This document shows, piece after piece, positions 18,494 to 64,000 of a stretch of DNA of 64,000 bases. Location of the stretch: positions 36,828,001 to 36,892,000 of the forward strand of contig CM097885.1 of NCBI GenBank assembly GCA_044892525.1. Direction: 5' to 3'. The notes below the pieces were generated by a model. The model did not search any database and was not told the DNA's origin. It worked only from the letters and a program-made list of their open reading frames with translations. The translations under genes and the position numbers were made by a program. The DNA comes from Schmidtea polychroa (lineage: Eukaryota). Positions within the stretch are counted from its first letter, which is position 1. Each line of letters begins with the position of its first letter.

Positions 18494-18998
18494 AGATATT
18501 ATCTTATCTACCTAAAAATCTGATTCTTCATGATGCCAATTGTAAATATTTATTGCCAGGGATAAGATAAGCCGTCCCCGCACGATATAAATGTTGCCTT
18601 ACAAACATGAATCACTATAGTAATTACTGTTGTATTTAACGATTTTCTGATTCCTATCACGATTCTGCAACATATAAATAATCCTAGTGGAAAATCCGGC
18701 AAATGAAATCTAACACTCTCTGATAAGAAACGGGAATAGTTTATCGCTACGACAGATCACTCCGAAATTAATTGCCAGGTGTGCAGATTAAATCCCCGTA
18801 ATTTGGATTGCCACGACGAAATAAACATAACTACATGCATTGTAGACATTAATTATAGGAGATTATATCATCACATCGTTAACACCTCGATATAAACGTG
18901 TTCATTTAATTATGTGAAGTGTTTAAAGTACAATTTAATCGATATTCTGACAATCCCAGGAAAATTAATCGAGGGACTACAAAGATGCCGGGGGGAAA

Positions 18999-19100
18999 AT
19001 GTACCGCCTCGTCCCAGATGGACAGATGAAATTTCTAGAGGACCACCGACTTCAAGTAGACATTGACGCCATGACGGCTGAGGGTGAAGTGTTTCTCTAA
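18999..19100 (+). pseudogene. C-terminal remnant of the LTR sense ORF
   Basis: MYRLVPDGQMKFLEDHRLQVDIDAMTAEGEVFL* aligns with VFRIVPANGIRFISDCRLPVDIDEIIADGENFA* of unit D. Confidence 0.75.
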
Positions 19101-19379
19101 ATAGCGACGCGAGCTTGGAACCTTGCCTTCTTTCGATCTCATGTGAATGGTTGCTCCGGCTTATAAATGTATATCTGGTATTCGATGTGTATCTTAAAAT
19201 GGATTGTACATACTGATTGTCTCATGTGAATTACAATAAATCTTAGTGATCTTAGCGTTCGTCATTCGATTTACTGTTAACTATTAGGTTTGTATGCTAC
19301 TATCCGAAGATTTGATTTTTCTTTATTGATAAACTCGTCCCTTTGGACCAGGGTCGTACCAATTGTTTGATTAAAAACC

Positions 19380-19518
19380 GGGTAAGTCCTTCTATGGCAC
19401 CATTGAACCCGTACCGAGATTTTACCAGGAGTAGTTCTAACATAGGAGCTCACCTGCTGTAAATTCCGACCTATGTGCGCAGTACCAACGTGTCACACCG
19501 CCACGGGCACACATAAGG
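19380..19518 (+). ncRNA. Conserved structured RNA motif, copy H
   Basis: AGTTCT-AACATA-GGAGCT-CAC; TATGTG(C)GC-AGTACCAA-CGTG...CACG-G-GC(A)CACATA. Confidence 0.75.
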
Positions 19519-19972
19519 GAGATGAACTGCTAGTCATACTGGATACTTAGGGAACCTAATTCTGAGAGCGTAGGAACATTTACTTTTCTTTTCTTCCCTG
19601 GGTACCCAACAACATCTAGTCTATATTTATATACAATTTTTAATTACAGCACTTTCTTCTGATATCTTTCCAATCGATTTTACAAATCTTTTCAATGTAT
19701 TAAAAATATTTTCTAATATAAAGCATTTTGTTTTATAGAAATAATTTTCATCTTCACTATCACTGAATTTTTTTTTATTTGAAATATATCAACAACTTTC
19801 TCTCTAAATAAATGGTTAAATAACTTTAATAATAAACATTTAGGTTATTTTCTAGTATAGGGGTTTATAAATAAAATAGGAGATTATAACTAATACAGTG
19901 GATTATAAAAAAGATTAATTGAAAAATTGAAACATTAAAAAAAATTAGAAAAAATAAAATATTAAGTAAATA

Positions 19973-27467: not shown

Positions 27468-28319
27468 TCTTAAACAATCAAATTGTTTAATTATTTTATT
27501 TCTCTTTCTCGATTTTCTAATTGAATTACTTTTTTATTTTTTCTTATTCTTCTTAAATTATGCACTTTTTGTCCTAGCTCCTTCGTAATAATCATTCTTA
27601 ATTGTTTATACTATTAATTCGTTCATTTATTTATTCTTTTCTTTTCAATTTAACAGATTTTTCGAATGTGTAGTTTTTACCTTAAATGTGGTGGTGATTG
27701 TAACTACTTGCGTTTATCATTTTTATACGTGTTTATTTATCTTGAATGTGTTGTGGCCTTTACTTTGTAATGTTTGATGTGTTGTTGTTTCGAGTTGGTT
27801 GTTGGTTACGACTCAGTTGAAAGATGTGGTCAAAAGGGCTTAGTTAATCGACATGACATCGTAATGCAGTTCATGTTGGTACTGTGTACAGGGGCTGAAT
27901 GTAAGGAAAGGTAAGCCTTCTTTTTCGGACTGATCTTGAAGTGCATTCATAAATATTTGGACGACTGATAGAAGGTCTTACGTCTAACGCAGTGATCTGT
28001 GGGTATATAGTCATTTTGATATATGATTGAATTTTCATAAACCGTTGGATAAAAATGAACGAATTGATCGAAACAAAAGAAACGTGAGCGAAATGATTAC
28101 AAAACAGCTAACACTATCAATCTTACCCATGTTTGGAACTTGATTATGTCCCAACCTTCTTTACTACCCTAGCTAAAAATTTCTGAGTGCAGTATTCTGT
28201 GCATTTCCATAAAATGTTATTGCTAGAGGATCTCTCTTCATATAATGTATATCTTTTTGATTAATAACATTGTTAACGTTATCCTTCCTGCATTAGCATT
28301 ATTCATTATGAGCGTACAA

Positions 28320-31430: not shown

Positions 31431-32228
31431 CCTAGTACAATATACATTAAAATTATATTATATATCAAGACATAAATTATAAAGTTTTATTGAATACCCC
31501 CCCCCCCCCCCCCCACCAGGAGGCAGGGCGATCGACTGCCACATTAAAGATCATTCAGAAACCATATATATACCGTATATATTTTTAACCTACAAGTTAT
31601 AATTTAAATTATTTTTTTTGGGTCATATGACAGTTGGGTGGGGCGACGCTGCAACTCGAGCGGTATATGTAGGTAACATTTTTCTCTAACCATAATATTG
31701 AATTAAGAATTTCCTTTAATAATAAAGTTTTGGGCTAAATTTCGGAGTGGAGAAAACTGGAGCGAATAGAAAAAGTAAACCTCGAAAAATAAATGAAATA
31801 AGACAGAAATATAAATTACCATCAAATCTCACTAGTAAATAGGAAGGAACAATAAAATACCAATAAAAGAATAAGAATAAGTAACCAAACTAAATAAAAC
31901 CCAATAAACCCCTTAAGATTTAGAAATAAAACGATTTAAGACACACAGCGGATAAAATAGAAATAGAATAAGCAAAAAAGTGAAACAAATAAACGGGAAA
32001 TTAAAGAAATAAATAAAAAATAAAACCATTTTTAAGTCAAATTAAAACAAAAAAATGATATTACAATAAAATAGCAATAAGTCCGCAGGAAAAATAGGAG
32101 AAAAATAATAAAAATAAGAAAAATAAATAAAATAATAATAAGAAATAAGTCAAGTCATTAAAATTTAATATATGATAATAAAAACATAAAAATAAGAATA
32201 AATAGTAAAATTACAAGCAAGTCGCGTC

Positions 32229-32253
32229 CTGATTGGACGAAAAATACTATATA
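32229..32253 (+). promoter_or_regulatory. LTR promoter CCAAT+TATA (unit B)
   Basis: CTGATTGG, 11 nt, TATATA. Candidate splice donor AG|GTATGT at 32454. Confidence 0.75.
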
Positions 32254-32538
32254 TGTAACGTGAAAAAGTAGAAAACTACCACTTTAATTTTCACGATTAC
32301 AGATATTCCACAGATTACAGAACCATAATCACAGACACCAATTCAGAGACTCCAGAACTTAAATTCAAGAAAACTTACTTAGCGACTAGCGACCAATTTA
32401 TTCGAGACCAGTTTTAAATTTAATTCAATTTGTTCCAGTTGTCGAAGCTCTAGGTATGTTGATCTATTTATGTTTGTTAGTTCAATTTCTTCGATGGTAA
32501 AAATTAAAAATAAAACTCATTTCATATAATAAATTTAT

Positions 32539-33702
32539 TTAAATAAAAATAGCCTTTTTCTTCATGGTGCCGGCGACTGTACCATCTGGGAGCTCCAAGT
32601 ATGATGTGGACGAATCGGAGATATGTCGCGGTGGAGAACATAATCACGAGGAAAATTTTCATCATATGTATCCGGAAGATGTTGAAAAGAAAATATGATG
32701 CTTGAGAAAATGGTATTTGTCGTATGAGAGGTTTGCCAAGAGCATGACAAAATTGCGATTGTATAGAATAAATGACATCATACTTGGTGTCCAAATGATA
32801 GGGTCGCCGGGTGAGATTTTATTATTCATTTGATCATTTTTATTATTTGATTATCATAAATTGTGCACGAATGGTTGATTTGCGAAGAATGAGTCGAACG
32901 GTCCCTCATGACGGTGCAAGAACGGCGGCAGAGATGAATGCATTCTTGGGTGGGTCATGAGGGGTGAGGAGACTCCGTAGGTTGAATCTAGTTAGAAGTG
33001 GAATTTCTCACACCGAGCGCGATCACTCATGGAGTATCTTCGTTTTATGCAGCCACGCCGATGTTTCGAGAATAGAGAAAATAATGCAAATTCCTAAAGT
33101 CGGAGACATTTTCGGGTTGAGATCCATAGTTCTTCACCGTCAGTAGCTTGCTTTCCGTCGAATACCGATAATTGTCCTAGTTGGGGTGGGCGATGAATGG
33201 TTCGAGTTTTTTCCAGAAATAGATTTCATACCAGAGTATCAACGCCACACAGTCGTAGCGGATCTATAGTTGAGATTAAAATTTTCCTCTATGTCATGGA
33301 CGAATCGTCGGACATCGTTTCAGTGAGGCGTTTCCTTCGAAAAATCACCGAGAATTTCTGCTAGACATTTTGGAATTAAATCCTGAGATGTACATTGCCA
33401 GGGATTAGCTAGTAAACCCATTCGTTGACCGAATTTGACTCTAGTTTGACATGAGTATCCGATAAAGCTTGATTTGATATCGATAACGGCGCGCCTAAAA
33501 TAGGAAAAGATACATTTGTTCTTGGTAAGGAAAGGAATTACTTGTTGGGAGTCCGGACGGAGCTGTCAATGGCGATAGGAAGCTCTTCCGCCTGTTTCGT
33601 AGTCAGGTATACTTTCGACCTGGAGGATTGGCCCAATATTCTGATAAAGACATCTAATGTATCGATTGAGGGAGGAGGCCGTCGAGAAAATGAGTTGACC
33701 AT
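32539..33702 (-). pseudogene. Antisense intron-containing accessory gene of unit B, decayed
   Basis: ATG at 33702. A 47-nt GT..AG intron (33541-33495) restores the frame when removed (…RTPN|KRAVIDIKSSFIG…). The gene ends LPDGTVAGTMKKKAIFI* with AATAAA overlapping the stop. Confidence 0.7.
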
Positions 33703-34093
33703 TTTTATCATGAGTTAACATAATGAGCAAATCTGAATGATAAGATTAATTCTACTCTACTGTTGGGCTGAATCGAAAATTTAATCGTTGAAAAATAAGA
33801 AAGTAGGAAAGTAGAACATTAAGGAAAATAAAAATAAAATAAATGAGATCAGAGATAAAATAGAATAAGATATAAGGAAAATAATAATTAAAACATAAGA
33901 ATTAAAACAAAAAATAAAATTAAGTAAAGATTAAAATAGAACAAGTTGACAAATAAATAAGGAGGAATTCAAGAAATAATAAGGAAATTAAGGAAATAAA
34001 TAGAAAAACATATTAAAAATAAAGAAAATAAGGAAAAACAACCTAAAAACAAGAAAATTATATTAAATTAATAGAAATAAGCGGTACTCAACT

Positions 34094-34130
34094 CTGATTG
34101 GCCCGCACAAATAAGAATTTGCTATATATA
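34094..34130 (+). promoter_or_regulatory. LTR promoter CCAAT+TATA (unit C)
   Basis: CTGATTGG, 21 nt, TATATATA. Candidate donor GTAAGG at 34415 and acceptor TTTTACAG at 36385. Confidence 0.75.
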
Positions 34131-34639
34131 CAACCACCAAAATCATTAAATTTACTGTTAACCCCGAGGATTTTATAGGTAAGAGAGAATGTTTAAACTG
34201 TCTACTGTTAACCCCGAGCATTTTATAGACATCCACAACTTACGGAGACACATTCAAGAATCAGAGACACTAACCGAGCAACAGTTCATTCAGAGAATTC
34301 ATAGCTACTTACAATCAATTCGAAGTTAAGAGATTTGTCACAGCAATCGATATTCCATCAACAAACTCATTCAGAGCGACTCACATTAATTTTTCGATCC
34401 AGCCTAATTCGAAAGTAAGGGATTTTATTTCATTCATTTATTTAAATTCGAAGTTAACAGTATTATGTATCTTTAATGAATAATTAAAAATTTTGAAAAA
34501 TGACATTGACTCTCTTTTCATTTGATCCCAATTAATGATTTCGATAAAATAAATAATTTAAAGGTCTAAAAGTAGTTATTAGTAATAAATGAGCGATTGC
34601 ACGATCTTTATGATTACTGTTATGAAATACCTTTTTATG

Positions 34640-35700
34640 ATTTTTAAAGTAACGAGTAACGTGGAGTTGAGGAACCGCGGATCATGGTGTGAGGTGCCTT
34701 CGGGAGCTTAGCCGGTGGATCTGAGGTTCTTCAATCACGCAGCTAGATTGGGCCGAAATGTGAAGGCTTCTTCACGGGCCCAATCGCTGAAGGATTGACT
34801 CAAAATTAGACAGAATGAGGAAAAACGATTTAGATTTGTGACATGAATTTAGAACGAATACCGAAATGTACAGTGATTGAGGTGGACATTACATCTGCAG
34901 TGAGTTTATTTCCATCCTGAGGAACCATGCGATCCTGAGACTAACTCTTCGCTAGCATCGTCGTAATCAGTCCAATTTGACTCTAACATCGTACTAAATT
35001 CCACACTTATGTTCGGTTAATTAAAAATTAGGACGAATTCTATATTCCTTCATTTTTCAGTTAAAAATAAATAAAGCTCTAATGTATAAATAACATTTAT
35101 TAAAATTAAAGTAAAAACACAACTCCTGATAATCATTTTATTTAACTTATACTTACTAGTAAACTAGAAATACCCGTTCAGCAGTTTCCACCCCATCACA
35201 TCAGGATGTCTATCATCGAAATAATATCCACATAGAGTAGGGAGTTGAATTGTAGAACTTTTTCATCAAGTAATATCTAGAATTGAGGAAAATCTCCAAA
35301 CATAGTAAATAATTCCAAAAAAATTCCAAACGAGAGAATTGTCATGAAAATTGAACGGTTGAGAATTTGTCCATATGATGTGCGAGTACAGATAAATTTT
35401 CCATTGAGTAGGCACACTAGCATGACTATGGGTAGCAACACCAGCGTTAGAATTACCTGAGAAATACACACGAGGATAGATGATAATCACGCAGTGAGTG
35501 CATGGCTAATCATGGTAATCCGTGTTCCATATGTCGTATCTAGCATAGATTCTAGCATTACGACTGATAACGACGGGATATTGAGTACTCGTCATAGTAG
35601 CTCCATGAATAGCAGATGATGGCTCTCGTAGATTTTTGTGTTGAAATGCGGTCAACGAAAGATAACTACATGCAGTAACTTTTCACAAACCACTCATCTG
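34640..35700 (-). pseudogene. Antisense accessory gene region of unit C
   Basis: Higher-GC coding-like pieces (ORFs 35266-35490, 35277-35471), an LPEGT-like motif near 34710, and QWK..WR similarity to the unit G plus strand. Exon structure unresolved. Confidence 0.45.
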
Positions 35701-36395
35701 GAAAATTTTCGAATGAATTAAATTTAACTGATAATAGAATGACTAAATGGATAATTATAGACAATTATAATTCGAATTAAATAATTTAAAGGATAACCGA
35801 ATGACCAAATGCGTAATTGTAGACCAGTATGAGTTAAACTAAATAATTTAAACGGTAACGGGTATTGTTAAATTAAGTGGGGATAATTGGGACCTGCTAA
35901 CTAATGATGGAAAACTAAAGCCAAGCGTTAATAATAGAGTCGGAAATTGTAAATTCGAGTGTTCTAACGAACAACGAATAGTAATTTTGAATAATAGGTA
36001 AATTAATTCGAGTTCGTGAATAATAACATTTTGAATAACCATGGTAAATATTTTAAATGATAATTAAGAGTGTTTTAAAAGCTACTCAAATGTACATTTT
36101 AATAATCAGATATGTTCATAGACCAACAATCATAGGGCAATTTAGTAATTAATAAACCTTCTCAATTTCTAAGTTAAAGATTTATTTGCATTCGTCAATG
36201 CTATCCCTTTAATGAACTATTCGTTAAATAAAAGCGATGTTACAAAATCGTCTAGAAGGGAAATCCATTCCCCTACTTATTCCGAATACCCGCTAACTGC
36301 TGACAGTGACTACCCAACCTCATTCGACCTGCGATCTTATTCATATAAAAGATTTACTAAGTCGTTATAGTTCCTTATTTTACAGTTGATCAATT

Positions 36396-37145
36396 ATGGT
36401 GCCAACTAAGAAATCCACCTTACGTCCTTGCTTCTCTTGCGCGGACAAAAACGCGATTATAAAGGATCTTCAGGCCCAGATCGGGCGCTACAAAAAGAAG
36501 ATAGATGAGCTGGAGGGCACTTGGTTTACCCCCGCTCAGATGAAGAAGACTCAAAAGAAGCTTCATCGTAGTGAGCATTGTCGGGACGCGCTCATCTCTG
36601 AAAGCCGTGCCCAGAGAAGCCTTATTAAAGAACAGTCAGAAGCGCTGCACAAAGTCTACGTGCAAGCAGCTACTACACAAAAAATCGTACAGATTCCCAT
36701 CAAAGAGGCCGATAACATCTTCCCGCCTCATCATAACCCCTCATCAAATCCACCTCCACCGTTCAAGAGACCCTGTCGAGACTGCGTGGAGACCGAACTG
36801 TCACCTATGCGACCGGACGTTGTCATCACAGGTACTAGTAAGACCTCAACTGCTAGTATCTCTGTATCCGCTGCGCTTCAGCAAGTCGCATCTGCAAGCA
36901 AACCCAAGCGCAAACAATTATCTCGTGCGGAACGTAAGAAGAGACAGCGTGAGCGCGCATCCACAAAGCCGAACATCCCATCGATAGAAAATTCAACCAG
37001 TGGTAGTAGTTCGCGCGTGTCCATCGACTTGACAGTAGGACCCCCAGCGCGCATCATCTCAGCAGCTGGCGTGACGTGGGAGGAAAACGCCTCCGAATTC
37101 TTTAATCTGGATGAGTTACTCGCCGACACCGAATGGGGAAAGTAA
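36396..37145 (+). CDS. LTR-encoded accessory protein, intact 249 aa
   Basis: PCFSCADKN, coiled-coil-like heptads, EGTWFTP, Pro-rich linker, KPKRKQLSRAERKKRQRER and acidic FNLDELLAD tail. Five homologues in the window; preceded by a splice acceptor. Confidence 0.85.
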   Translation: MVPTKKSTLRPCFSCADKNAIIKDLQAQIGRYKKKIDELEGTWFTPAQMKKTQKKLHRSEHCRDALISESRAQRSLIKEQSEALHKVYVQAATTQKIVQIPIKEADNIFPPHHNPSSNPPPPFKRPCRDCVETELSPMRPDVVITGTSKTSTASISVSAALQQVASASKPKRKQLSRAERKKRQRERASTKPNIPSIENSTSGSSSRVSIDLTVGPPARIISAAGVTWEENASEFFNLDELLADTEWGK

Positions 37146-37415
37146 GAGAACCACAGTGGCATTCCCGAAGCCTGTTGCGAAGTCGGACTACATTTGTTGG
37201 GGTGTTTTTTCTTTTCCTTCGACAAACATTCGTTATGTGTACAGTTGAATCCTCGTGTCTAAATGTTGTAATTAATAAATTTTGTTGTTTCATATATTTT
37301 CGTTTATGAATAGCCAGACTTTGATTAAATAGGTTAAATAAAGCGTCTTCGAGAGCTAAGGAATAATCCACGATTTGTTTTCGCGAAATTCCGACAAACG
37401 GTGGTGTAATGAGAT

Positions 37416-37561
37416 GGACGTAAGCCCTTCTATCGGCAGTCGTGAATGGGAAGTCGAGGCCTCAGCAAGGAGTATTTTTAAGGCAGAAGCTCACCTGCTT
37501 GCTGGAGTCTCGCCTGCATAGTGCAGTACCAACGTGAAGTAATTCACGGGCACTATGTTGG
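37416..37561 (+). ncRNA. Conserved structured RNA motif, copy C
   Basis: Outer stem GAGGC.TCAGCAAG/CTTGCTGG.GTCTC; inner TTTT-AAGGCA-GAAG; CATAGTGC-AGTACCAA-CGTG..CACG-G-GCACTATG. Confidence 0.8.
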
Positions 37562-38030
37562 AGGAAAGTTATGTGGGGTTTCACTCCAGGTTGACAAGGC
37601 AGTAGCACATTTTATTCGAGATGGACAATCCACCCGTAGACCAGCCAATATTGTAGAGTAGTCAGCCGAGGTGTAACCCCAACACTACTATACCCACGAG
37701 TAACCTACACAATCAAGTTTCTTGAGTTTTCGAACACACCAACTGAATTTTCTGTCTTAACTGGAACCGTATCTGCAACGCTATATCTATTAATTACTGC
37801 CCACACATACACACCTGCATCACACTCAAATTAGATCACAGTGAACATGTGGACATCAGTATTACTTAATCATAGTGAGAGAGTCGTAAAGCTGCATCTA
37901 CGAGTGGTCCACTAGATTTCTTCAACGAAAAATCACAGCACGATGAGAACAATTTTTGTTGTATGCAAGTTGCTAATTAAATATTCAGACATGCATTGCA
38001 AAGGAACCGTCGATATTTGTTGGTATAGAT

Positions 38031-40659
38031 CAGGGGTGGCAAAACTTTCAAGTCTTGCGGGCGACTTTTAACTAAATTAAATCTGGCGGTCTACCAGAAA
38101 AACTATTTTCAATTGTTACCTGTAGTTATTCTATTTATTCTATTTAAATACAAAACGAATTAGAAAAAAACTTATAATACTTTACTAGAACGTAAACATA
38201 TCTTAATATAATATTATTTACTGCTACTACTTGCACCTGATACGTGGCACTGCATCTTATCAGCAAGTTCTTCGTATTTCGGGCAATAGGAGCTTATGGC
38301 GATCCGCAAGCATGATTCCAAATGATCATCTGTCAAACAAGATCGATGTTTTTTTTAATGACATTCATTGAAGAAAAGGCTGATTCACAAAGATAGGTGG
38401 ATCCAAAAAATGCGGACATATATCCAACTACTCTCCGCAAAATTGGATATTTTTCTTCTGAAATAAGATTCCAAAAATTATCTTCGGTTGTAGCTCTTGA
38501 TTTTAAGTAAATGTCGCTTTTCAACGCTATTATCTCATCTTCTAAGCAAGCTGAATCTGAATCCAGAAATTCATTAATCTGAGTAGCGATCTCCTCTGTA
38601 TCAATAACATTATTAAACGGGAATGACATGAACATAGCAATATTTGCAATTTTAGATAAATCTGCGAAACATGTGTTAAATTCATTTAAAAGGGTAGTAA
38701 TTTGATTTGTATATTTATCGTAAAGAATTCCTGGCGCATTTTTGGATTCTTCTTCCATGTTTTTAAAATGTTTCAAATCACCCCGTTCTAGTTGACGCAC
38801 AAACAAGGACAGTTTCTCTTTAAACGTCTTTACTGCCGTTATCATGTCAAGAATTGATTTGTGTCTCCCCTGAAGCTGTAAATTTAATTTATTCAGGTGC
38901 TCTGTAATGTCGCAAAGAAAAGCAAGATTTATCAGCCAACTTTTATCCTCCAGTTCGGGATATAATTCTTCTCTTCCAGTCAAAAACTGTTTTATTCCGG
39001 GCAAAAGATCTCTAAATCGTTTTAAAAATGCTGCACGGCTAAGCCATCTTACATCCGTGTGTAACAATAATTCAGTATTTTCAATTTCACATTGTTCAAG
39101 CAAAGTTCGAAATTGACGTCGTTGTAGACTTCTTGCACGTATCGAATTTACTATTTTAAACGCAATATTCATTACATAGTTCAACACTTTGGAGCATAAG
39201 GTTTGCTGGTGGATAATGCAATGATACGAATGAAAACTGGGAATTTCTTCATCATTTTTGCAAAGTGTTACAAATCCGACATGTTTTCCGATCATAGACG
39301 GAGCTCCATCCGTGGTAATTGATACCAACTTGTGAATCGGGAAATGGGTGCGACTTATAAAAGACTTGAATAAATTGTAAATATCTTGACCCCTTGTTTG
39401 TCCTTTCATTGGAAGAATAGTCAATAATTCTTCTCTGGTTGACATATCATCAAAAAACCATTCGAATGAAGATGCATAGTTGCGCAGTATCAGTGAAATC
39501 TGTAGATTCATCAAATTGCAAAGAGAAAAAGCGGCATTTTCGAATATCTTGCCGCAAAATATCTTCCAAGTTTTTGCTAATGTCCACCATTCTTTGCGTG
39601 CTAGTATTGCGCGCCAATGACATATTGTTGATACAATCCATTATTTCGGATTTATTTTTAAAATCTTTGAATAACACCTCACCAGCTTCAACAAACGCCT
39701 GTTTCCATATTTCGCCATCTCCAAAAGCTTTTTTATGTTTCATCAAAATATTAACTACCTTGAATGATGCTAGGGTAGCTGTTTTTGATTTTGAGTTAAA
39801 TTTCGTAAAAAAAGTTTGTTGTGCACCTAATTGAGACTTTAACTGCTTGACTTTGTCTTTTCGTACCTCGGAATGTAATGGAAAGTCAATTTCATACTGT
39901 TTGTGCACTGTTCGAAAATATCGTTCAACGTTAGCTCTTTTAGGTAGTGCTACGTTTGAATTACAAATGAGACAAACACACTTATCTTTCATCATTATGA
40001 AAAAAAATTCCTGTTCCCATTCAGTATTATAATGGTACGTTTTAGTTTTTTTGGCCGGTTGTGTCATTGGGGCTAAAACAAGAAAATAATAAAAGCTAAA
40101 ATAAATTAAATATGAAAATTAATGTTAAACACACTTACATACTCAAAAATTAAAAATGTTAACTTTTATAAAGAATTTTTTTTAATAAAAAAATTTTGAA
40201 ATTAATATTATAAGCAGGTATTATTCAATACTGAAATACTTCAAGCTTTCAAATTTTTCTAACGAAAACAATTTGATTTCAAAATTTTTTTATTTTATTT
40301 TGGTTGTTTTTTATTTTTTTATTCCTTATCGAAGATTGTAGCGTCAATGTTTTGCTTTTATTTTATGGCCTACTTGTTCAAACACATGAAATTTATTCTG
40401 ATTATTAGCTAACTGTATATATTTGAATTTCAAACTAAAAGTTTACTACACTCTGAGTGTTATCTGACTAATATTATGTTTCTTATTGGAATTTTTTTGT
40501 CATATGAATTGAAACTTATTTTAAATATGTTTATAAAGTTAGAAATTCAATAAATAAAAAACTGATTTTTATATGCAATTTTCCATAGTGCTAGCGGGCT
40601 ACTTTCGATAGCTACGCGGTCGACCAGTCGACCGCGGTCGACGCTTTTTGCCAGCCCTG
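38031..40659 (-). mobile_element. Buster/Charlie (SPIN/GTF2IRD2-like) hAT transposon, complete
   Basis: TIR CAGGG(G/C)TGGCAAAA, TSD GTATAGAT (38023-38030, 40660-40667). Confidence 0.95.
38214..40067 (-). pseudogene. Near-intact hAT transposase with two homopolymer frameshifts
   Basis: FDESTD, TTDGAPSM, HCIIH, DVRWLSR and STYLCESAFS. Frameshifts fall in a T-run near 39455 and an A-run near 38350; the C-terminus LTDDHLESCLRIA is recoverable. Confidence 0.9.
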
Positions 40660-41262
40660 GTATAGATAGACAAGCAAATTAACACATATTTGCGTCCGAT
40701 TTAGGCGTCGCCATGACGATTTTTATGGCGTTAAATTTAAAATAATTAAGTTATAATTTAGGATAGGAATTTTTAGCGAAAGTATCTTAATTGTCGTACA
40801 AACCCGAGGGGTCTACATACAAATCGAGGAGATCCCGGTAATCGCTGAATTTTCTCCCATCATATAGTACATATAGAATTTAGTGACGCAGTAGCGAAAT
40901 GGGGGAAAGTGGAATTGTTGAAATATAATGAAACGAACTAAAATAATCAAGATCACAATAATGAAGTAATACTAATACATTAGTTAGGAATAGTAGCACT
41001 CGTAAAATAAACGTAAAGGTTGAAGTTAATATGAAGGAATGTTTTTCGGAAATTCCCGTTTTCTTCTCATAAATTAGTAATGATTGAATGGTTTAACTTG
41101 GATGTTTGAGATCGAATGAATGGGGGTATTGACTAACGGTGTGGATTTGTGACCCCTATTGAACAGCTTGATTAGGAAGATTTTAAATTGCGTATTCGAA
41201 AATATAAATAATACTCCAGCGAATTTTACAATTTAAAGATAAAGATTTTCTCAAAACTTTAG

Positions 41263-42025
41263 ATGAATGCCTCAACCAGCTCCGGGAAAACCCTCCGTCC
41301 TTGCTTTTCCTGTGCTGATAAAAATGCCGATATCGCACAGCTCCACTTATACATCGGGGAACTAAAGAAGAGAATTGACCTCTATGAGGGGACGTGGTTC
41401 TCCCCACCACAAATGAAGGAGGAGAAGAACAAGATTCTACGTTTGGAGCACTGCCGTGACAGTCTCCTGGAAGAGAGCAGGTGCCAGAGGCTAACCATAA
41501 AAGCCCAATCAGAGGCACTGCACAAAGTATATTCCGAATCAGAAATAGCGAAGCGAGTTCGCGAGTATCCAATACAAGATGGGACTAACGTGTTCCCAGG
41601 GCACCACCAATCAGCGGAAACACCATCCACAACTAGTTGCAAGGGGCATGGCTTACAATTGCCGCCAATCCCCGCCCAGTCCTTTCTGGTTACCGGCTTA
41701 TGGCTGGCGGTCGATCGGACCCTATCTTGGCTCCAATCCTTGTGTCACCCCTCATTCAGCCTCCAGCAGAAGCCACCTTGCCACCCCGAAAGCGTAAGCG
41801 GCCGACCCGCTCGGAGAAAAATCAGAAGCGCAGAAACGCCATGGCCGCGCTCGAGGCATCGTTATCTGCAGCCAAATCGACTATCAAGGAAATTACCGTT
41901 ACCCATTCCATTCCTACAAAGAAGTATTCCGGGTAGTTCCAGCCGACAGCATCAAATTCCTCGAAGATCGCCGATTGCCCGTTGACATCGACGAGATGCT
42001 CGCAGAAGGAGAAGCATTCCCGTAG
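41263..42025 (+). pseudogene. LTR-encoded accessory protein of unit B, two 1-nt deletions
   Basis: PCFSCADKN, EGTWFSP, PPRKRKRPTRSEKNQKRR, VDIDEMLAEGE; frameshifts near 41677 and 41925. Confidence 0.85.
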
Positions 42026-42308
42026 TGAATCTTCCCATCGGCCCCGATTCCTCTACCTTATGCCTGAACTCGAATGATTTGACAATTATTGTGTGCATGT
42101 GCTTAAATGTTTCATCATTATCCAACTAATATGTACTGTCGTTTATGTTTTTTCATTTCAATACAACCGTTCTATTTTCTCTGACTGTGTTAGTTATATG
42201 GGTGATTTACGGTGGTTGAATTGAACGAGAAGGGGATCCTGAAGATATAGTATGAGCTTAAATGTCGTCCCCTTGGGCCGGGGCCGGACTGAATCACATG
42301 TATAGAAT

Positions 42309-42449
42309 GGGTAAGACCTTCTAAGGCACCGTAGAACCCGAACCGAGAAAGGGTTAGGAGTAGTCCTAAGGCAGGGGCTCACCTGCTAACCTTTTCCAAC
42401 CCGTGTGAGCAGCACCAACGTGGAACATCGACACGGGCTCATGCGTGGG
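42309..42449 (+). ncRNA. Conserved structured RNA motif, copy B
   Basis: GAAAGGGTTAG/CTAACCTTTTC outer stem; AGTCCT-AAGGCA-GGGGCT-CAC; GTGTGAGC-AGCACCAA-CGTG..CACG-G-GCTCATGC. Confidence 0.8.
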
Positions 42450-43220
42450 AATATGTGAATGATCATGTGAAGTATGTGAGGGAATAGTCTGAGCAGAACG
42501 ATGTTACTGGATCTGTATGATAATCATGTATGTATAAATTTTTTCTTTTTCGCATACGCCAACAAAAGTTTAGTTTGGATCACCTTTTCCCCAATGACAT
42601 AAATGTAAATCACCGACACCTATCCTCAGTAAACTCCTTCAGATCACATAATCAATGGCAGCGAGATCGCTAGTAATCTTAATAAGTCTTAACAATACAA
42701 AGCCCTGACTTCAATTTGAATTATATCAGGAAAAGGTCTTGAAAAATGGTAATACGAAAATATAACTAAATCACTCACATAAAGAAAAGAACGTGGAAAA
42801 CGCACAAAATTTTATTATCTGACAAAATTATTAAATTTCATGAGATGACACCGTGTTGGCAGTGAATCAGTATCCAAGTACTTTTTCGACATTAAGCAGA
42901 CTAAACTCTCGTGAACGACTGAGGTACAATTTAATTTGGTTTTACAAATTCAAATAAACCAAAATTTTAGTTTATTAAGATGATTATTCGCGTCATAGAT
43001 GATTATTAGTTCGAGGTCTAGTTTTAGGCTTTCTTTTGCTGTGAGATGATAGGTCGGGTAGTACGGTCACGAATTTTCCCTTTTCTTTTGTGTTTGGGAT
43101 CTAGTACTACCAATTAAAAATTGACCTTAAGCGTGGAGATTGAATTTTACTATTATACGATGACCGACAGAACTATATCTTAAACAATTATAGAAATGTT
43201 CCAATCCAGCATCTACGATG

Positions 43221-43772
43221 ACAAAGAATCAAACCGGCAGTTAATCACTCGACTCCGGACTGGAACTGGGGTCGAGACCTGGAAAACTACGGTCCAGTAA
43301 TATGGAATGGACCCGAGGCCGATGCCCGGGCGTGGGTTAAACCGGAACCCTACAATAACCTATTGGTGGAGGCCCGCGACCAAGCGATGGCAGAATTAGA
43401 AGCAGCGAAAATCAAACTGTGGAAAATCGAGAACCAGCTGCGAGTAGAAGCAATGGGGATCCGGGAACTCGAGGGCACTTGGTTTAGTCCGACCGAAATG
43501 AAGAAGACGTCTCAAATACTACAACTTCAGACTCAAGCCGAACAAGATCAAACTGAAATCCGTGCGTTAAGGTTACAGATACGCGCGTTAGAAACCAAGC
43601 TGAATCAACAACTTATCAATGAGGCCACAGCAGCAGAGATTCGCCCTCTGCCAACAGAATTGGCCGAAATATATCCACCGGCTCCGTCAACCTAAACGAA
43701 GCGTAAGAGGTTAGGTCGAAATACCCGCGAAAACCTAAAGAAACTCCGGCTGGTAAGGCTGGTAAGGACCTA
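43221..43772 (+). pseudogene. Divergent LTR accessory protein of unit A
   Basis: Open frame from 43221 with IRELEGTWFSPTEMKK and a coiled-coil-like segment. After an in-frame TAA at 43693 it continues TKRKRLGRNTRENLKKLR. Confidence 0.7.
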
Positions 43773-43929
43773 ACCCAAACTCAACCATCAAAGGTGTTGT
43801 AACCGAGAGTACATTTTGAGATTTAGCATAAATTAACGTGTATTTTAATGTGACTTATGTTTGACTGATGACAGAATGATGGGTGTATATTTTGGAAAAC
43901 AATTGTGACAAGGGACCTGAGTGAAATCG

Positions 43930-44064
43930 GACACATCTTCTAACGATAGTCCGTGTACCTAAGGAGTGCCCGACAATTATAGTGCAATTAGTGCGCTCAC
44001 TTTTTGCGAGCACTCCCCAACTTAATACAGTACCAACGTTGATTACTCAATGGATATCAAGCGG
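43930..44064 (+). ncRNA. Conserved structured RNA motif, copy A (most divergent)
   Basis: GGAGTGC/GCACTCC outer stem; AGTGCA-ATTAG-TGCGCT-CAC; AGTACCAA-CGTTGA..TCAATG-G. Confidence 0.7.
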
Positions 44065-44140
44065 TAAAACAATGTTGTATCCTGGGTTACGCTGGTAACA
44101 GCACGAAAAAGTAAATCATTTGATCATCAGTAACCCACCA

Positions 44141-45592
44141 TAGTGTTCGAAAATAAGATAAATCCTTATACTTTTTATCACCATGAATTTTAGTCAAATG
44201 TTCTTGTAGTCTGGAAATTTTCTTGGCTTCGTTTGATAAAACTTTCTGGCAAATCAGGCACATAGGTAATTTATTGTTTATGGGCGACTGAATAAAGCCA
44301 AATTTCAAATATTCTATATTATATTGTCTACATTTTTTTGTTTCAGCCATTATCGTCTGTCTAAAAATAATATATATCAATAAATTTTTAAATGATATAT
44401 TTTTATAATTTTCTGCAATATTTATGTGAATATCAAACTAAACTGATAAAATCAATAAACATGATATTTTAATTTATAAAGTGCATATAATTACTACAAA
44501 ATAAATAAATGTCGTGAAAGCAGCGACTTCATCGACGTCGGATGCGCCGATGCAATGTATATTTCCAAGCAATTACTACAATGTAAATGTGCTGATGCAC
44601 GAGCGTGGATATCTACGACACTTCAATATCAATGCTCGGATGTCTTTTTCAGGATTTAGAATATTTCTATCGAAATATATGTCTTCAATGTATAATGCGC
44701 GATGATGCACTGCGCCGATGCAATGTGTGGAATGGCAAATTGCAATGCTAAAAATGGCAAACTCCGCATGGTTTGCCCGGAAGTTCCCGGACTTCTAAGA
44801 AGCACAGTTTTCTATATTCCACGGTGGGCTACTCGCCGGTGCTCGCCCCTTCCAGGAAAGTTCCCACTACCCCAAGGGAAATCAAAGCCCTGTGGCATCG
44901 GTAGAAAGTCGGGAAACCATGTGGAACGTTTCTCACTAGGTTTTAGGGGCGTAACTATTAAAAAGGCCTGCACAACGTTATCACATTATGGATAATCAAA
45001 TAATACTGATATTTGTTACTTTTTCACCGTACATGTACTTAACAATTTATATTTTAAACTAGTTTAACTTTATTTTAGTTGCCTTTACTTATTTTAACTA
45101 ATAGTTGTGTAATTTTAAATTGTGTATCGCTCATTTATTTAAGAACACAAAATAACCCGCAACGTTGTTGCCACTAAAGCCATGTAATAGTCAACTGAAA
45201 AACAGCACCTTTATACTCAACATAGTAACACAAATAAAAGAAAACAAAAATCGTACTTCCGCAACATAAATAATAATCACCAATTATAGAGGCACTATTT
45301 GTTAGTTAACTTTAACTAGTGACAATATCACAACAATCTAACCTACAATTATATTACGCTAGCAATTCAATAGCATCACATGAACAGTAGCGGTGCGGGA
45401 TTGTACATACATACCTCGGCGCAAGTGATAAAATGAAGCATCATAAACGGAATACATAAATAAATTTTCCTAATCTTCTTGACTTACTTTTATACTTTCA
45501 CTGCCTCGTTACAGTTATTTATCCCCCCCCCAATCCACCTGTAGCCATCACTGCCCCCTGGATCGCTGCAGCGCCCACTTTGGGAACCACTG
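44141..45592 (-). mobile_element. 5' part of the split Buster hAT (N-terminal ORF + TIR)
   Basis: ATG at 44350: MAETKKCRQYNIEYLKFGF...CLICQKVLSNE..RLQEHL..YFRTL. Terminal TTTGGGAACCACTG at 45579-45592 is a CAGTGGTTCCCAAA TIR. Confidence 0.85.
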
Positions 45593-48459: not shown

Positions 48460-48920
48460 TTACGGTGCTCTACTAGTACCCGTGATAACCAGCTCTGACG
48501 TGGAAGGCGACAGATCGGCCTCTACAAAATCGCGACATCCCGGTTTGGACGAGAGATTAGAATGATATGGAAAGTCGTGATTGATGGGGAAATGATTATC
48601 CGCTTCGGCGATTGGAATATCCACTATCTTCTTCGTAACGGCGTCCTGTAGGTAGACCTTATGCAGAGCCTCCGACTGCTCTTTTATTAGGGATCGTTGA
48701 GCTCGGCTCTCCTCGATCTAACTGTTCCTACAATGTTCGCTACGGAACAGTTTTTTTTTACCTCCTGCATTTAGGGTGGAGAAAACCAGGTTCCTTCCAG
48801 GTGATCAATTTTCTTCTTGAGCAATCCTATCTGTACTTGGAGGGTCTTGATAATGCTGTTCTTGTCCGCATAAGAAAAAAATGGGTTGAGAGAATTCTTG
48901 GTTGATGATCTAGCTACCAT
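48460..48920 (-). pseudogene. LTR accessory protein of truncated unit G (C-subfamily)
   Basis: DKNSIIKTLQVQIGLLKKKIDHLEGTWFSPP*, then RSEHCR..ESRAQRSLIKEQSEALHKVY...VITGTS, collinear with 36396-37145. A strong acceptor TTTTCGTTTAG lies 4 nt before the ATG. Confidence 0.85.
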
Positions 48921-55444: not shown

Positions 55445-56150
55445 CTAGGCAAAGTTTTCTCCGTCGGCGATTATCTCATCGATGTCGACAGGCAATCGAC
55501 AATCCGATATGAATCTGATGCCGTTGGCCGGGACAATCCGGAAGACTTCCTTCGAGGGGATCGAATGGGTGGATGATATTTCCGTTATTTTTGACTGCGC
55601 TGCAGACAATGATGCTTCGAGCGCCTTTATCGCATTTCTCCGTTTTTCATTCTTCTCGGCCCTGGTCGGGTGTTTTCGTTTGCGAGGTGGTGGATTTTCT
55701 CCTACAGCCGTAGTGACGGTAGGTGCCACTAGAACCGGGGCCAGAATTGGGTCAGACGGAAATAGGTAAATATCCCTTTCATAGGTAAATATCCCGACAG
55801 CACTGGGGCTGGGATGGGCGGTAGATGTGAACCGTGCCCTTGACAAATTGTGGTAGAAGTGGTAGAAGACTGATGGTGGAGAGGAAAAACGTTTGTTCCG
55901 TCGACGACAGGAAATTCGTGCACTCGCTTGGCTAGTTCTGCCTCCGTATAGACTTTATGGAGGGCTTCGGACTGGGCCTTTATTGTGAGCCTTTGGCAGC
56001 GGCTCTCTTCCAGTAGGCTGTCCCTACAGTGTTCTAATCTGAGGATCTTAGCCCTCTCCTCCTTCATTTGTGGCGGGGAGAACCACGTACCTTCGTAAAG
56101 ATCGATCCTCTTCTTGAGGGCCCCGATGTACAAGTGCAATTGAGCGATGT
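55445..56150 (-). pseudogene. LTR accessory protein of unit D, N-terminus deleted, one frameshift
   Basis: DIAQLHLYIGALKKRIDLYEGTWFSPPQ..., PPRKRKHPTRAEKNEKRR, VDIDEIIADGE; frameshift at a short duplication near 55780. Confidence 0.85.
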
Positions 56151-60339: not shown

Positions 60340-62335
60340 TGATTTACGTGTTAGAACAGATAATTTCAATGAAAAAGGTGTTACGATTTATAAACAAAAA
60401 TGAAATACTTTATTATTATTTAGAATGTCATTTTAAAAAGTTATGGTTCAACGTGAACAAGTTACAAAGCAGGAATCTTATCTTAAGTTAGTTAAATTTT
60501 TCCTTCCTGAATTTTCGAGTAAATTTTTCATATTATTCACTATACATGGTGTCGTAGTGACGCGAAGGTTCAACTTCTTTGGTACTGCGATTGTTTGCTG
60601 ACATATATAAAACACTGAATTTTATCCTTGACCTCAGTGAAAAAATATAATTTCTCCCACTTTCCTTGGAAAACCCTTTTTTCATCAACTAGTTTTCTTT
60701 TTTAACATAACGAAGTCATTTGAAATGAATAAATAAGTTAAATAAATAAATTAAATAAATAAGTTAAATAAATGAACAACCGATTTTTTTTATTTTTCGA
60801 TAAAATTCATAAGAATGCCGTAACTATGCTTTTATTAATTTGCAAGCAAGTAAAAATTTCCAAATTAAAATAATTTGAAATTACGTTTTAATTTGTTAGC
60901 CAATTGCGATTTTATTTATATTTTACTAAAACTTTTCACTTGAATATTTAGTTCAATTTAACAGAAGAAATATTTGTGAGGCGAATATAAATCATTCGAT
61001 AATTATTAGTGGGAAAATAGATATTGAGAATCCGGGGCTGTTGATTATTCAAATTATTCAGATAAAGATTATTTAATACCTAAATTATTACATATCAAAC
61101 GATGAAGTTGACTGAGAAATAATAACCAAATCTTTTAATAAAGTTTTGGCTGAGTTATTTATGATTAATTTTATTTTAATGAAGATTCTTACCACCTGAG
61201 AATAATTTTATCAAAGCTTTCTTCATTTATTTCATTGTTTAAAGATTAATTCTTTATTTTCCACCCTAAAATAATTTTATCAAAGTTCTTATTTTGAGTT
61301 GTGATAATTTGACTGATTTAGTTTGATGGAGTTATTGTTACTTCGTTTTATTATATGTAGTCTGAGTTTATCCGACAGGATGTTTTGTCCCCCTTTTGGT
61401 CGTAGGGGTACTAGCCGTAAATCATCTTCAGTTTCATTTGAATAATTATTTAGGCAAATCTTGGTGTTTTCAATGACATTTTTAGTGTTGATGTTTGATG
61501 GTTTTAGAAAATATTTGTGAATTTGATGTTGACTGAAAGAATATTCAAGGTTTTAATGATTATTCTAATAAATTTAATTGATAAATTTAATTAATTTGTT
61601 GTATTTTATTGACCTGTTTTTTAATTATAATTTCATTAAAAATTATTTAAATGATAGGTTAATAATCAAGCGATAGTATTAATTTTTGATGATATTCAAT
61701 TTGACTAAATGATTTTTTCAATAACTATATATTTTCTAAGAATATATCCACGAATCAATTAGATGAACTTTTAAATATTGCTAATCTTAACATGATGGAA
61801 ATTGTGATTTATTTTGAATATGTTATAATTGCTTGAATATCATTAGGGAAATCAATAACAGTTAAAGAAAATTCATATTTTTGATGAATTTTAACATTTT
61901 CTATGGGTTTTGAGAGGATTGACTGAATTATTAAGAGATATACGACCTGGAATAGGTTGAATCTTTGGTGAAATTGTCGGTTGTATATTTAAAGGGGTAG
62001 AAATATTTCTTGGGGGATCGGTGGAAATGTTTTGAATATCTCTATTTAAATGGAAAATTTTCTTATTGGTAAAATGTTTCAAGGGAAATAGTCAGTATTT
62101 AGCTATGAATCAATCCTGTGAAATTATATCGTTTTAGAGGTTTATTAAGTTGTGATGAATGTTATTGTATAGTAATTTAGATTTATAACGTTTTTATTAA
62201 TTTTCTATTAATTATCCACGGTTTTATTGTTTAGGGTTAGTAGGTAGATAGTAGCTCCCCGCAGCAATGACCCCCCCGGGGGGGAGGGGTTCTGCTGCCG
62301 TAATTTTTTTGCTGCAACTTTTGATTACGCAATTT

Positions 62336-63360
62336 TTCAGACTATAGTGAGGGGGTCTCGATGGTCCTGGGATTTTCAATACAAAAAAATTTTTTCAATA
62401 CAAAAACGATGGTCCTGGAATTTTCAATACAAAAAAATTTTTTCTATACAAAAACGATGGTCCTGGGATTTTCAATACAAATAAAATTTTTTCAATACAA
62501 AAATCCGACTACCACTAAAAAAGCCAAGGAATTTTCAGACTATAGTGAGGGGGTCTCGATGGTCCTGGGATTTTCAATACAAAAAGGCGGTCTCACTAAA
62601 AAAGCATAGAATTTTTCAGACTATAGTGAGGTGGGTCTCCTTGGTCCTGAGAAAAAGGTGGTCTACACTAAAAACGTGGTAATTTAAGGTCTCAGGATAT
62701 TTTCAATACAAAAATCCGACTACCACTAAAAAAGCATGGAATTTTCACACTATAGTGAGGGGGTCTCGATGGTCCTGGGATTTTCAATACAAAAAATTTT
62801 TTTCTATACAAAAATCCTACTATCAATAAAAAAGCCAAGGATTTATCACGCTATAGTGAGGTGAGTCTCCTTGGTCCTGAGAAATAGGTGGTCTACACTA
62901 AAAAAGCATGGTAATTTAAGGTCTCAGGATATTTTCAATACAAATAGGTGGTCTACACTAAAAAAGCCAAGGATTTTTCAGACTATAGTGAGGGGGTCTC
63001 GATGGTCCTGGGATTTTCAATACAAATAAAATTTTTTCAATTTAAAAACGATGGTCCTGGGATTTTCAATACAAAAAATTTTTTTCAATACAAAAACGAT
63101 GGTCCTGGGAATTTCAATACAAAAATCCGACTACCACTAAAAAAGCCAAGGATTTTTCAGACTAAAGTGAGGCGGGTCTCCTTGGTCCTGAGAAAAAGGT
63201 GGTCTACACTAAAAAACGTGGTAAATTAAGGTCTCAGGATATTTTCAATACAAAAATCCGACTATCACTAAAAAAAGCACAGATTTTTCGAATTAAATTA
63301 AGGTGGGTCTCCTTGGTCCTGAGAAAAAGGTGGTCTACACTAAAAAACGTGGTAAATTTT
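62336..63360. repeat. Composite satellite (higher-order repeat)
   Basis: Shuffled modules CAGACTATAGTGAGGGGGTCTCGATGGTCCTGGGATTTTCAATACAAA and GGTCTCCTTGGTCCTGAGAAAAAGGTGGTCTACACTAAAAA. Confidence 0.9.
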
Positions 63361-63860
63361 TCAATTAAAGTAAATAATGGTCCAAATTTTTAAATTAAAG
63401 TAAATAATGGTTCTAAAAATTAAATTATAGTAAATTATGGTCAAAATTTTTCAAATACAGTAAATTATGGTCCAAAAAATTAAATTACAGTAAATTATGG
63501 TTCTAAAAAATTATATTACAGTAAATTATGGTCTAAAAAATTAAATTACAGTAAATAATGGTCCAAAAATTTAAATTAAAGTAAATAATGGTTCTAAATT
63601 TTAAATTAAAGTTAATTAAGGTCCAAATTTTTAAATTAAAGTAAATAATGGTTCTAAAAATTAAATTAAAGTAAATTAAGGTTCTAAAAAATTAAAATAA
63701 AGTAAATTAAGGTTCTAAAAATTAAATTACAGTAAATAATGGTCCAAATTTTAAAATTAAGTAATCAAAGTAAAAAATTAAAATTAAAGTTAAATAAGTA
63801 AATTAAAGTAATAATTTTTTAAATAAGTAAATTAAAGTAAATTAAAGTAAGATTTTAAAA
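63361..63860. repeat. ~21-bp minisatellite
   Basis: AAATTA(A/C)AGTAAAT(A/T)ATGGT(T/C)C(T/C) units in tandem. Confidence 0.9.
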
Positions 63861-64000
63861 TTTATTAACAAAAAGTTGAAATAATAGAAGGTGTTTGAGA
63901 ATTGAAATTTTTTAATGAAAATTTTTATGAAAAATTTTTCAATGGTAATTTTTAATGGAAATTTTTATGGAATAATTTTTTAAGTTAATTTTTAATGGAA

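Follow-up and report, generated by a model that had tools for sequence, protein, structure and literature searches.

Results

An intact ORF inside a solo LTR

Within the window, i.e. the whole stretch of 64 000 nucleotides of Schmidtea polychroa DNA that was analysed, an intact ORF of 249 amino acids occupies positions ∼2.6–3.4 kb of a subfamily-A solo LTR of ∼3.9 kb (Table 1). A preliminary description of this DNA had called the protein LTR-encoded, and this was confirmed: the ORF lies within a 3924 bp LTR bounded by TGTTG...CAACA ends and a 4 bp duplication, and it is found in both LTRs of paired elements. The host site of the solo LTR is an older LTR of the sister subfamily B, and the whole region from 31730 to 42564 is nested, the subfamily-B LTR being split by the solo LTR and by an element with terminal inverted repeats (38031–40659) flanked by an 8 bp duplication, which we take to be hAT-like. 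Tandem arrays with periods of ∼30, 48, 131, 181 and 230 nt were seen at 62332–64000.

Table 1. Features of the LTR-internal ORF family and the associated RNA motif in the window
Feature	Position	Strand	Remarks
Subfamily-B LTR	∼31730–33760, 37685–38030, 40660–42564		Split by later insertions
Solo LTR, subfamily A, Burro-type giant Gypsy	33761–37684	+	TGTTG...CAACA ends; 4 bp target duplication CTAC
Pyrimidine-rich tract and CAG, putative 3' splice acceptor-like site	36371–36385	+	Ends 10 nt before the ATG
Intact 249-aa LTR ORF, subfamily A	36396–37145	+
Predicted poly(A) signal, AATAAA followed by U/GU-rich sequence	37274–37279	+	Upstream of the RNA motif
Structured RNA motif, subfamily A	37416–37565	+	Helices P1 (UUCUA loop), P2 (inner hairpin) and P3 (AGUACCAA bulge); GTAAG at 37420 donor-like
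Subfamily-B ORF copy	41263–42025	+	Frameshifted
RNA motif, subfamily B	42307–42455	+
Subfamily-C relic	43196–43775	+	Deletion fusion of two C-type LTR ORFs (C1, C2); stops; lacks CxxC and acidic tail
RNA motif, subfamily C	43926–44075	+	No GTAAG at the homologous place
Subfamily-D tail remnant	18990–19102	+	RNA motif at ∼19378–19525
Subfamily-E relic	55448–56150	−	5'-truncated, frameshifted; RNA motif at ∼55149–55000
Subfamily-F relic	48463–48920	−	Stops, frameshift, 3'-truncated; no RNA motif found beside it

All six homologous copies listed in the preliminary description (36396, 41263, 43221, 48920 and 56150 on the reverse strand, and a tail at 18999) were recovered at these places, with basic patches and acidic tails as quoted there. 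The reading frame is intact only at 36396–37145, the other five copies being broken relics of related subfamilies. Regarding the motifs said to be conserved, EGTWF[ST]P is present in all five copies that cover the region and SEALHKVY in four of five (it is missing from the copy at 43221). CFSCADKN is exact in only two copies (36396 and 41263); the copy at 48920 has a degenerate version, the one at 56150 has lost it by deletion, and the subfamily of the copy at 43221 lacks it. The CxxC presented as a module of the family belongs to some subfamilies but not to the family as a whole, as subfamily C lacks it.

The ORF lies in Burro-type LTRs and has thousands of candidate copies

The genome (781 Mb) contains thousands of candidate ORF copies: a search with three subfamily queries gave 6732, 6401 and 6835 first-look candidates, and all of the 150 candidates scored per query matched, although the three sets overlap and do not represent copy numbers. 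Many matches were paired at a distance of ∼26 kb, and in the six pairs examined the ORF was present in both LTRs, which were 99.3–100% identical, indicating that some insertions are recent. LTR pairs measured 3868, 4193 and 5265 bp, and element totals calculated from coordinates were ∼29.8 kb (L026–L029) and 30.6 kb (L093–L096). Three or four copies at a regular spacing of 26–33 kb (G000:C2:37328966, 37356336 and 37383800; G000:C1:145063723–145163640; G000:C1:72646542–72699549) suggest tandem elements with shared LTRs.

Pfam searches (L027/L028, L094) revealed an interior organized in the order Gag, CCHC knuckles, Monjiviricetes-type fusion protein, PR, RT, RH, IN and ankyrins, with the fusion protein (Env) located in frame between Gag and PR inside the polyprotein. 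Internal accessory ORFs encode RING and RING-MATH proteins, and in subfamily C a BIR (BIR-RING) protein as well; subfamily A carries ankyrin and RING-MATH, and subfamily C ankyrin, MATH within the polyprotein and BIR, for which no match was obtained in the subfamily A and B ORFs scanned. The gag start lies ∼2.7 kb past the LTR, and a small RING-finger ORF is placed between the primer site and gag (L093:5740–6216; L026:9113–9595). A gap of 7 nt separates the end of the 5' LTR from a primer-site-like sequence (L026:8771–8795; L093:5268–5290; L021:8523–8548), presumably tRNA-Pro-like, and no plain polypurine tract was found directly 5' of the 3' LTR of the elements at L026, L093 and L021. Based on their architecture, compared with the published description, these are Burro-type giant Gypsy elements; Burro/GYPSM1 of planarians is described in section 7 of PMC6431247 as a giant Gypsy-like LTR retrotransposon with the architecture found here. 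This architecture points to a dugesiid planarian as the probable host.

The ORF is under strong purifying selection

Alignment of 26 natural copies and comparison of eight within-subfamily pairs yielded whole-ORF dN/dS values of 0.06–0.15, or 0.09–0.19 with a transition weight of 3, whereas shifted sense frames used as control gave dN > dS; two A-versus-B pairs were saturated and set aside. The N-terminal core showed values of 0–0.12, the tail 0.01–0.16 and the linker 0.10–0.62 within subfamilies, and the basic patch ranged from 0 to 0.07 in seven of the eight pairs and from 0.29 to 0.37 in the remaining pair, where only one synonymous and one nonsynonymous change were present. The lowest values were thus found in the helical core, the basic patch and the acidic tail; as the copies had been chosen by similarity to residues 1–105, this choice biases the core but not the patch or the tail, which lie outside the search query. 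Purifying selection on the LTR ORF is strong, in keeping with the past purifying selection that had been deduced from the copies of the window, and pairwise values of 0.06–0.19 are far from a value near 1. A chance ORF was rejected, as were a gag or env fragment and, in the absence of any host domain, the capture of a host gene.

Architecture and relatives of the protein

The 249-aa protein begins with a CxxC (aa 13–16) and a predicted helix (13–40), followed by a TWF[ST]P turn, a second helix (46–98) with a His-Cys pair, HH and CxxC/H motifs, a disordered linker, a basic helix at ∼aa 171–189 and an acidic-hydrophobic tail at ∼aa 230–247. AlphaFold2 modelling of the core (residues 6–113, 34 sequences) gave a mean pLDDT of 83, with helices 8–35 and 41–93 of the 108-aa fragment joined by the TWF[ST]P turn, so that the coiled-coil module of the preliminary description is matched by a predicted helical hairpin. 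The full-length model (12 sequences) had a mean pLDDT of 58 and was disordered outside the core except for the basic helix (177–189) and a short tail helix (238–243), both of low confidence. The Cys/His residues (CxxC, HC, HH and CxxC/H), which could be zinc ligands, are conserved in subfamilies A, B, D, E, F and G and absent in C; subfamily C keeps the core, the basic patch and the RNA described below, and CxxC and the acidic tail are missing.

The basic patch contains five to seven Arg and three to five Lys per 22 aa. An acidic Φ-D/E-x-Φ-Φ motif was present in the last 40 residues of 65/68 distinct full-length proteins (A/B/D/E), with a tail net charge of −3 to −10, although this pattern was written after inspection of the sequences and the copies are related. 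By contrast, only 7/68 matched a nuclear export signal (NES) pattern in the last 40 aa; matches to NES patterns inside the coiled coil (30–33/68) are probably buried. The tail would therefore be better described as an acidic activator motif than as an export signal.

The preliminary description had named a gag, env or host-domain match as evidence against its proposal, and none was found in homology and fold searches. Pfam returned only sub-threshold coiled-coil matches and no match of the window copy to REV at E ≤ 1; a word-indexed protein search gave no match for the single protein (near lengths) or the profile (longer lengths), and the best PDB sequence had an E-value of 0.13. In structure comparisons, the best ESM Atlas score of 0.87 was under the tool's lead level and Foldseek found nothing in BFVD or PDB at E ≤ 0.001, while VIA, with a best Z of 10.0 across 64 residues, indicated generic hairpins; ESCRT-III/PspA-type hairpins scored Z 8.9–9.1, which is under the level meaningful for helical bundles. 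No DNA-binding fold was identified in the protein. An exhaustive protein search, however, revealed nine relatives (P0001–P0009; 31–38% identity, E 2e-7 to 3e-4), all of them unnamed UniParc gene models, in which the core is kept, the patch is nearly pure Arg/Asn, and CxxC and the other Cys motifs are absent; two contain a PPPY motif. One of them, P0006, showed a weak match to Pfam REV below the cut-off (E 0.0013, 19.1 versus 22 bits). In seven of the nine the domain is fused to unrelated host domains, and these fusions are probably annotation artefacts arising from intronic LTRs.

Expression signals

A YAG was located within 12 nt of the ORF ATG in 57 of 62 distinct upstream contexts, compared with 572/2257 ATGs of the window (25%), 10 copies without a nearby Met having been left out of the count. 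The spacing between YAG and ATG varied (0, 1, 2, 4, 5, 9, 10 or 11 nt), which points to a putative non-coding upstream exon. Most internal accessory ORFs likewise have an AG 0–7 nt 5' of their ATG (L024, L028, L029, L093, L095, L098, L101 and L106; read by eye, with no control count), suggesting that the whole element may follow a common-leader or trans-splicing plan of expression.

Poly(A)-type hexamers were detected 60–230 nt upstream of the RNA motif in 68/74 contexts (a count in AT-rich DNA, with no background), and AATAAA or ATTAAA between the motif and the LTR end in 7/74. At the start of the motif, a donor-like G[TC]RAG was present in 50/59 non-C contexts (including one truncated row) and in 0/15 C-like contexts (including one A-type copy classed as such). 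The first base of this GTAAG covaries with its pairing partner and hence structure may explain part of its conservation. In contigs of uncertain type (four runs) on L093:3700–5300, neither a GT-AG joint nor a start or end was visible, a result that is uninformative in both directions; a genome search for two hypothetical spliced junctions, which would have represented a spliced DNA copy, gave no match. Taken together, the signals suggest that the ORF is likely a spliced, U3-located accessory gene, expressed via cis-splicing of a leader or via spliced-leader trans-splicing.

A conserved, structured RNA motif downstream of the ORF

The LTR DNA 3' of the ORF specifies a structured, covarying RNA of ∼150 nt, whose 3' end is ∼120 nt short of the LTR end. 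When the window copy was compared with L026, identity was 97% in the RNA motif, 79% in the ORF, 75% in the spacer and 60% upstream. In the P2 stem, 8 of 10 pairs showed compensatory changes among 17 aligned copies and the inner hairpin was 96% paired, the structure having been derived from the same alignment. In P3, the first eight outer pairs hold in 54–61 of 62 distinct variants, each with several pair types, the first inner pairs having served as search anchors; helices 3 and 4 had appeared poor on a MAFFT alignment (59% and 69%) owing to mis-registered loop lengths and were re-counted by anchoring. Single-sequence folding z-scores were modest (−1.8, −2.0, −0.2, −3.8 and +0.5), and a search of positions 36000–45000 against Rfam yielded no match at E ≤ 1. 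The UUCUA loop is invariant (37426–37440 and homologues) and presumably resembles a T-loop, which hints at tertiary structure in the motif. Another fragment of the motif, from its 5' part, was noted at 27981 on the reverse strand of the window.

The motif was present 3' of the ORF in 169/193 loci with enough flank (duplicates included), but this co-occurrence is expected from linkage alone, as both lie within the same LTR. The distance from ORF stop to motif, given as 250–300 nt in the preliminary description, was ∼270–295 nt, except in the subfamily of the copy at 43221 where it is ∼150 nt.

A second ORF in subfamily C

Subfamily-C LTRs contain a second ORF of ∼121 aa, termed C1, upstream of the core ORF (L097:4602–4964; L079, L084, L089, L090 and L092). 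C1 has an acceptor-like AG and an AATAAA of its own and terminates in RGRP, which we take to be AT-hook-like, and shows a dN/dS of ∼0.1 between diverged copies; it had no match in Pfam. The core ORF of this subfamily, C2 (L064–L092, L097 and L105), is selected from its first codons past a conserved YAG, and most copies lack an ATG there, so that translation would have to begin at a GUG or in a phase-1 exon not yet seen. An intron from C1 to C2 looked possible in L097 only, with no conserved donor across 16 aligned copies, and was rejected. A spliced-leader AUG as the start of C2 was likewise discarded, as it would be out of frame.

Discussion

The LTR ORF is a selected protein-coding gene of a known element, it has no characterised relative, and it is apparently undescribed; the new part is thus apparently an LTR gene with an orphan domain. 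The interpretation offered in the preliminary description was borne out in part. The literature searched contained no description of an LTR-internal ORF or RNA in Burro, although the ORF may already be drawn in the original Burro figures or in Repbase, and it reported no dedicated regulatory gene for an invertebrate Gypsy LTR.

The explanation we favour, with a probability of roughly 0.42, is that both LTRs of Burro-type elements carry an accessory gene whose message is likely a spliced subgenomic RNA and whose product is likely a nuclear trans-activator of the element's own transcription, comparable to Tas or Tax. A short 5' leader would be spliced to the acceptor, which makes the copy in the 3' LTR the one that is translated, as for sag of MMTV, and the message would end at the hexamer ∼130 nt past the stop. 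The helical hairpin, with Cys/His residues that possibly bind zinc, would form oligomers; the basic helix would mediate nuclear entry and contact with nucleic acid; and the acidic Φ-D/E-x-Φ-Φ tail would recruit host co-activators, as in foamy-virus Tas, which has an acidic C-terminal activation region and a basic nuclear signal. The conserved acceptor-like YAG, the location in the LTR and the selection on basic helix and acidic tail argue for a trans-activator, as does the prevalence of the tail motif over the NES pattern (65/68 versus 7/68). However, short hydrophobic motifs of this kind are also compatible with an NES, a SUMO-interacting motif or another docking site, and NES patterns do match the coiled coil in 30–33/68 proteins. 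It also counts against a trans-activator that subfamily C has retained core, basic patch and RNA without the tail and CxxC, that the distant relatives have a nearly pure Arg/Asn patch and in one case a weak REV match, and that a DNA-binding fold was not identified. With respect to splicing, the donor-like GTAAG is found in 0/15 subfamily-C contexts and its conservation elsewhere is partly explicable by structure; neither a GT-AG joint in the (uninformative) contigs of uncertain type nor a spliced DNA copy in the genome was obtained.

The main rival explanation is that the protein is an export adaptor like Rev, Rex or Rec, whose basic helix would bind the LTR RNA motif and whose oligomers would export the ∼25 kb intron-retaining genome, the motif being confined to unspliced RNA if GTAAG is the major donor. 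We regard this as possible but unlikely. An element with acceptor-like sites before nearly every accessory ORF would need a means of exporting unspliced RNA, the basic patch is under selection, and the RNA motif is 97% identical in a pair of copies with nearly saturated synonymous sites; the donor-like site in 50/59 non-C contexts and the sub-threshold REV match of P0006 are likewise consistent with it. An arginine-rich motif with nuclear/nucleolar signals is common to Rev, Rex, Rec and Rem, as outlined in PMC2661877. Against this reading, the window copy gave no match to REV at E ≤ 1 and about half of its patch is Lys, and the tail shows no conserved NES pattern (7/68). The co-occurrence with the RNA follows from linkage, and an RNA beside the primer site would suit signals bound by Gag or RT equally well. 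Furthermore, subfamily C has no donor at the motif start and keeps RNA and basic patch without CxxC and tail.

The RNA is most likely a separate cis-element in the leader of the genomic RNA, acting in packaging, in primer activation or in translation, and is not necessarily what the protein binds. Its end lies ∼120 nt short of the primer site, in a place where one would expect packaging signals, and packaging or primer activation may be taken as its default function. The wider proposal that Burro elements are invertebrate 'complex retroviruses' with an independent Rev/RRE-like circuit, composed of an Arg-rich oligomer encoded in the LTR and a 150 nt RNA kept in unspliced transcripts only, appears doubtful. 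If it were true, a 25 kb multi-acceptor unit would be switched between accessory mRNAs and genome export, and thousands of solo LTRs would carry both the protein gene and the RNA.

About as doubtful, in our opinion, is a role in modulating the host, similar to that of nef or sag, in which a coiled-coil adaptor would act against piRNA or chromatin silencing or on host signalling and the basic patch would serve as a nuclear localization signal only. Such a role would match the TRAF, RING and BIR cargo of the element (RING, RING-MATH and BIR-RING ORFs) and the generic helical hairpin of the core. It would also fit the repression of BURRO1 by SMEDWI-2 in planarians, which is stated in PMC8532177. 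On the other hand, no similarity to host domains was found, and retention in the LTR of every subfamily examined suggests, without showing, that the role is tied to expression of the element.

A Tat/TAR-like pair, which the preliminary description had offered beside the Rev/RRE-like one, is now disfavoured and seems highly improbable. It would place the RNA at the extreme 5' end of all transcripts, where the protein would bind it to release paused polymerase. The Cys/His-rich parts, the basic patch and a P3 stem with a conserved bulge would be in accordance with this; but the RNA probably begins well within the leader, mostly behind the donor-like site, and is a multi-helix motif of ∼150 nt that also follows a predicted poly(A) signal, whereas the Cys motifs, which in Tat make up an essential Cys-rich domain, are dispersed rather than clustered in A/B and absent from subfamily C and P0001–P0009. 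Equally remote is a coiled-coil accessory that is packaged in particles or tethers the integration complex, for which the long helices and their generic likeness to ESCRT-III/PspA-type hairpins would speak, as no significant fold match was obtained and the combination of an NLS-like patch and a disordered acidic tail is found more typically in regulators.

Complex retroviruses of vertebrates are characterised by dedicated regulatory genes. Burro is abundant, env-bearing and piRNA-controlled in a major regeneration model. With an orphan protein under strong selection, a covarying LTR RNA and an acceptor-like AG ahead of nearly all accessory ORFs, the expression of its ∼25 kb multi-ORF unit has become a testable question. 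Since the gene lies inside the LTR, thousands of solo LTRs have contributed to its spread, and it appears as a fusion with host genes in publicly annotated gene models.

The elements resemble Burro as described in section 7 of PMC6431247 in their size (∼30 kb, with ∼4–5 kb LTRs), their thousands of copies, Gag with CCHC knuckles, a fusion-protein Env in frame between Gag and PR, RT-RH-IN, and ankyrin, MATH/TRAF and BIR cargo. They differ from that description in that subfamilies A and B have the MATH domain in an ORF of its own further downstream and BIR was seen only in subfamily C; the text of that section makes no mention of an ORF or a structured RNA inside the LTRs. With Rev, Rex, Rec and Rem (PMC2661877) the protein would share a basic helix with a candidate Arg-rich motif, a predicted helical region that may oligomerise, putative spliced expression and a structured RNA in or near the LTR, but it has no conserved NES pattern in the tail, a Lys-rich patch, a much longer coiled coil and Cys/His motifs.

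A parallel to the trans-activator that we favour is provided by foamy-virus Tas (Bel1) and deltaretroviral Tax, which are 3'-end accessory genes made by splicing with a basic nuclear signal, Tas having a C-terminal acidic activation region in addition. No similarity in sequence or fold to either was found, with no match at E ≤ 0.001 in BFVD or PDB, and the LTR ORF, unlike them, lies wholly in the LTR and is thus duplicated at both ends and kept in solo LTRs. Like sag of MMTV and nef of HIV, it is located in the LTR, probably in U3, and would be read from a subgenomic RNA using the LTR poly(A) signal; it shows no similarity to them, no transmembrane segment is present in the model, and its host is an invertebrate Gypsy lineage. 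Tas-mediated transcription in foamy viruses is noted in PMC7828637. Among Gypsy elements, the additional ORFs of Grande, RIRE2, Retand and Ogre are, according to PMC7264820, also conserved extra ORFs to which no function is assigned; these plant ORFs are situated in the internal region and often in antisense, whereas the ORF described here is in sense orientation and inside the LTR.
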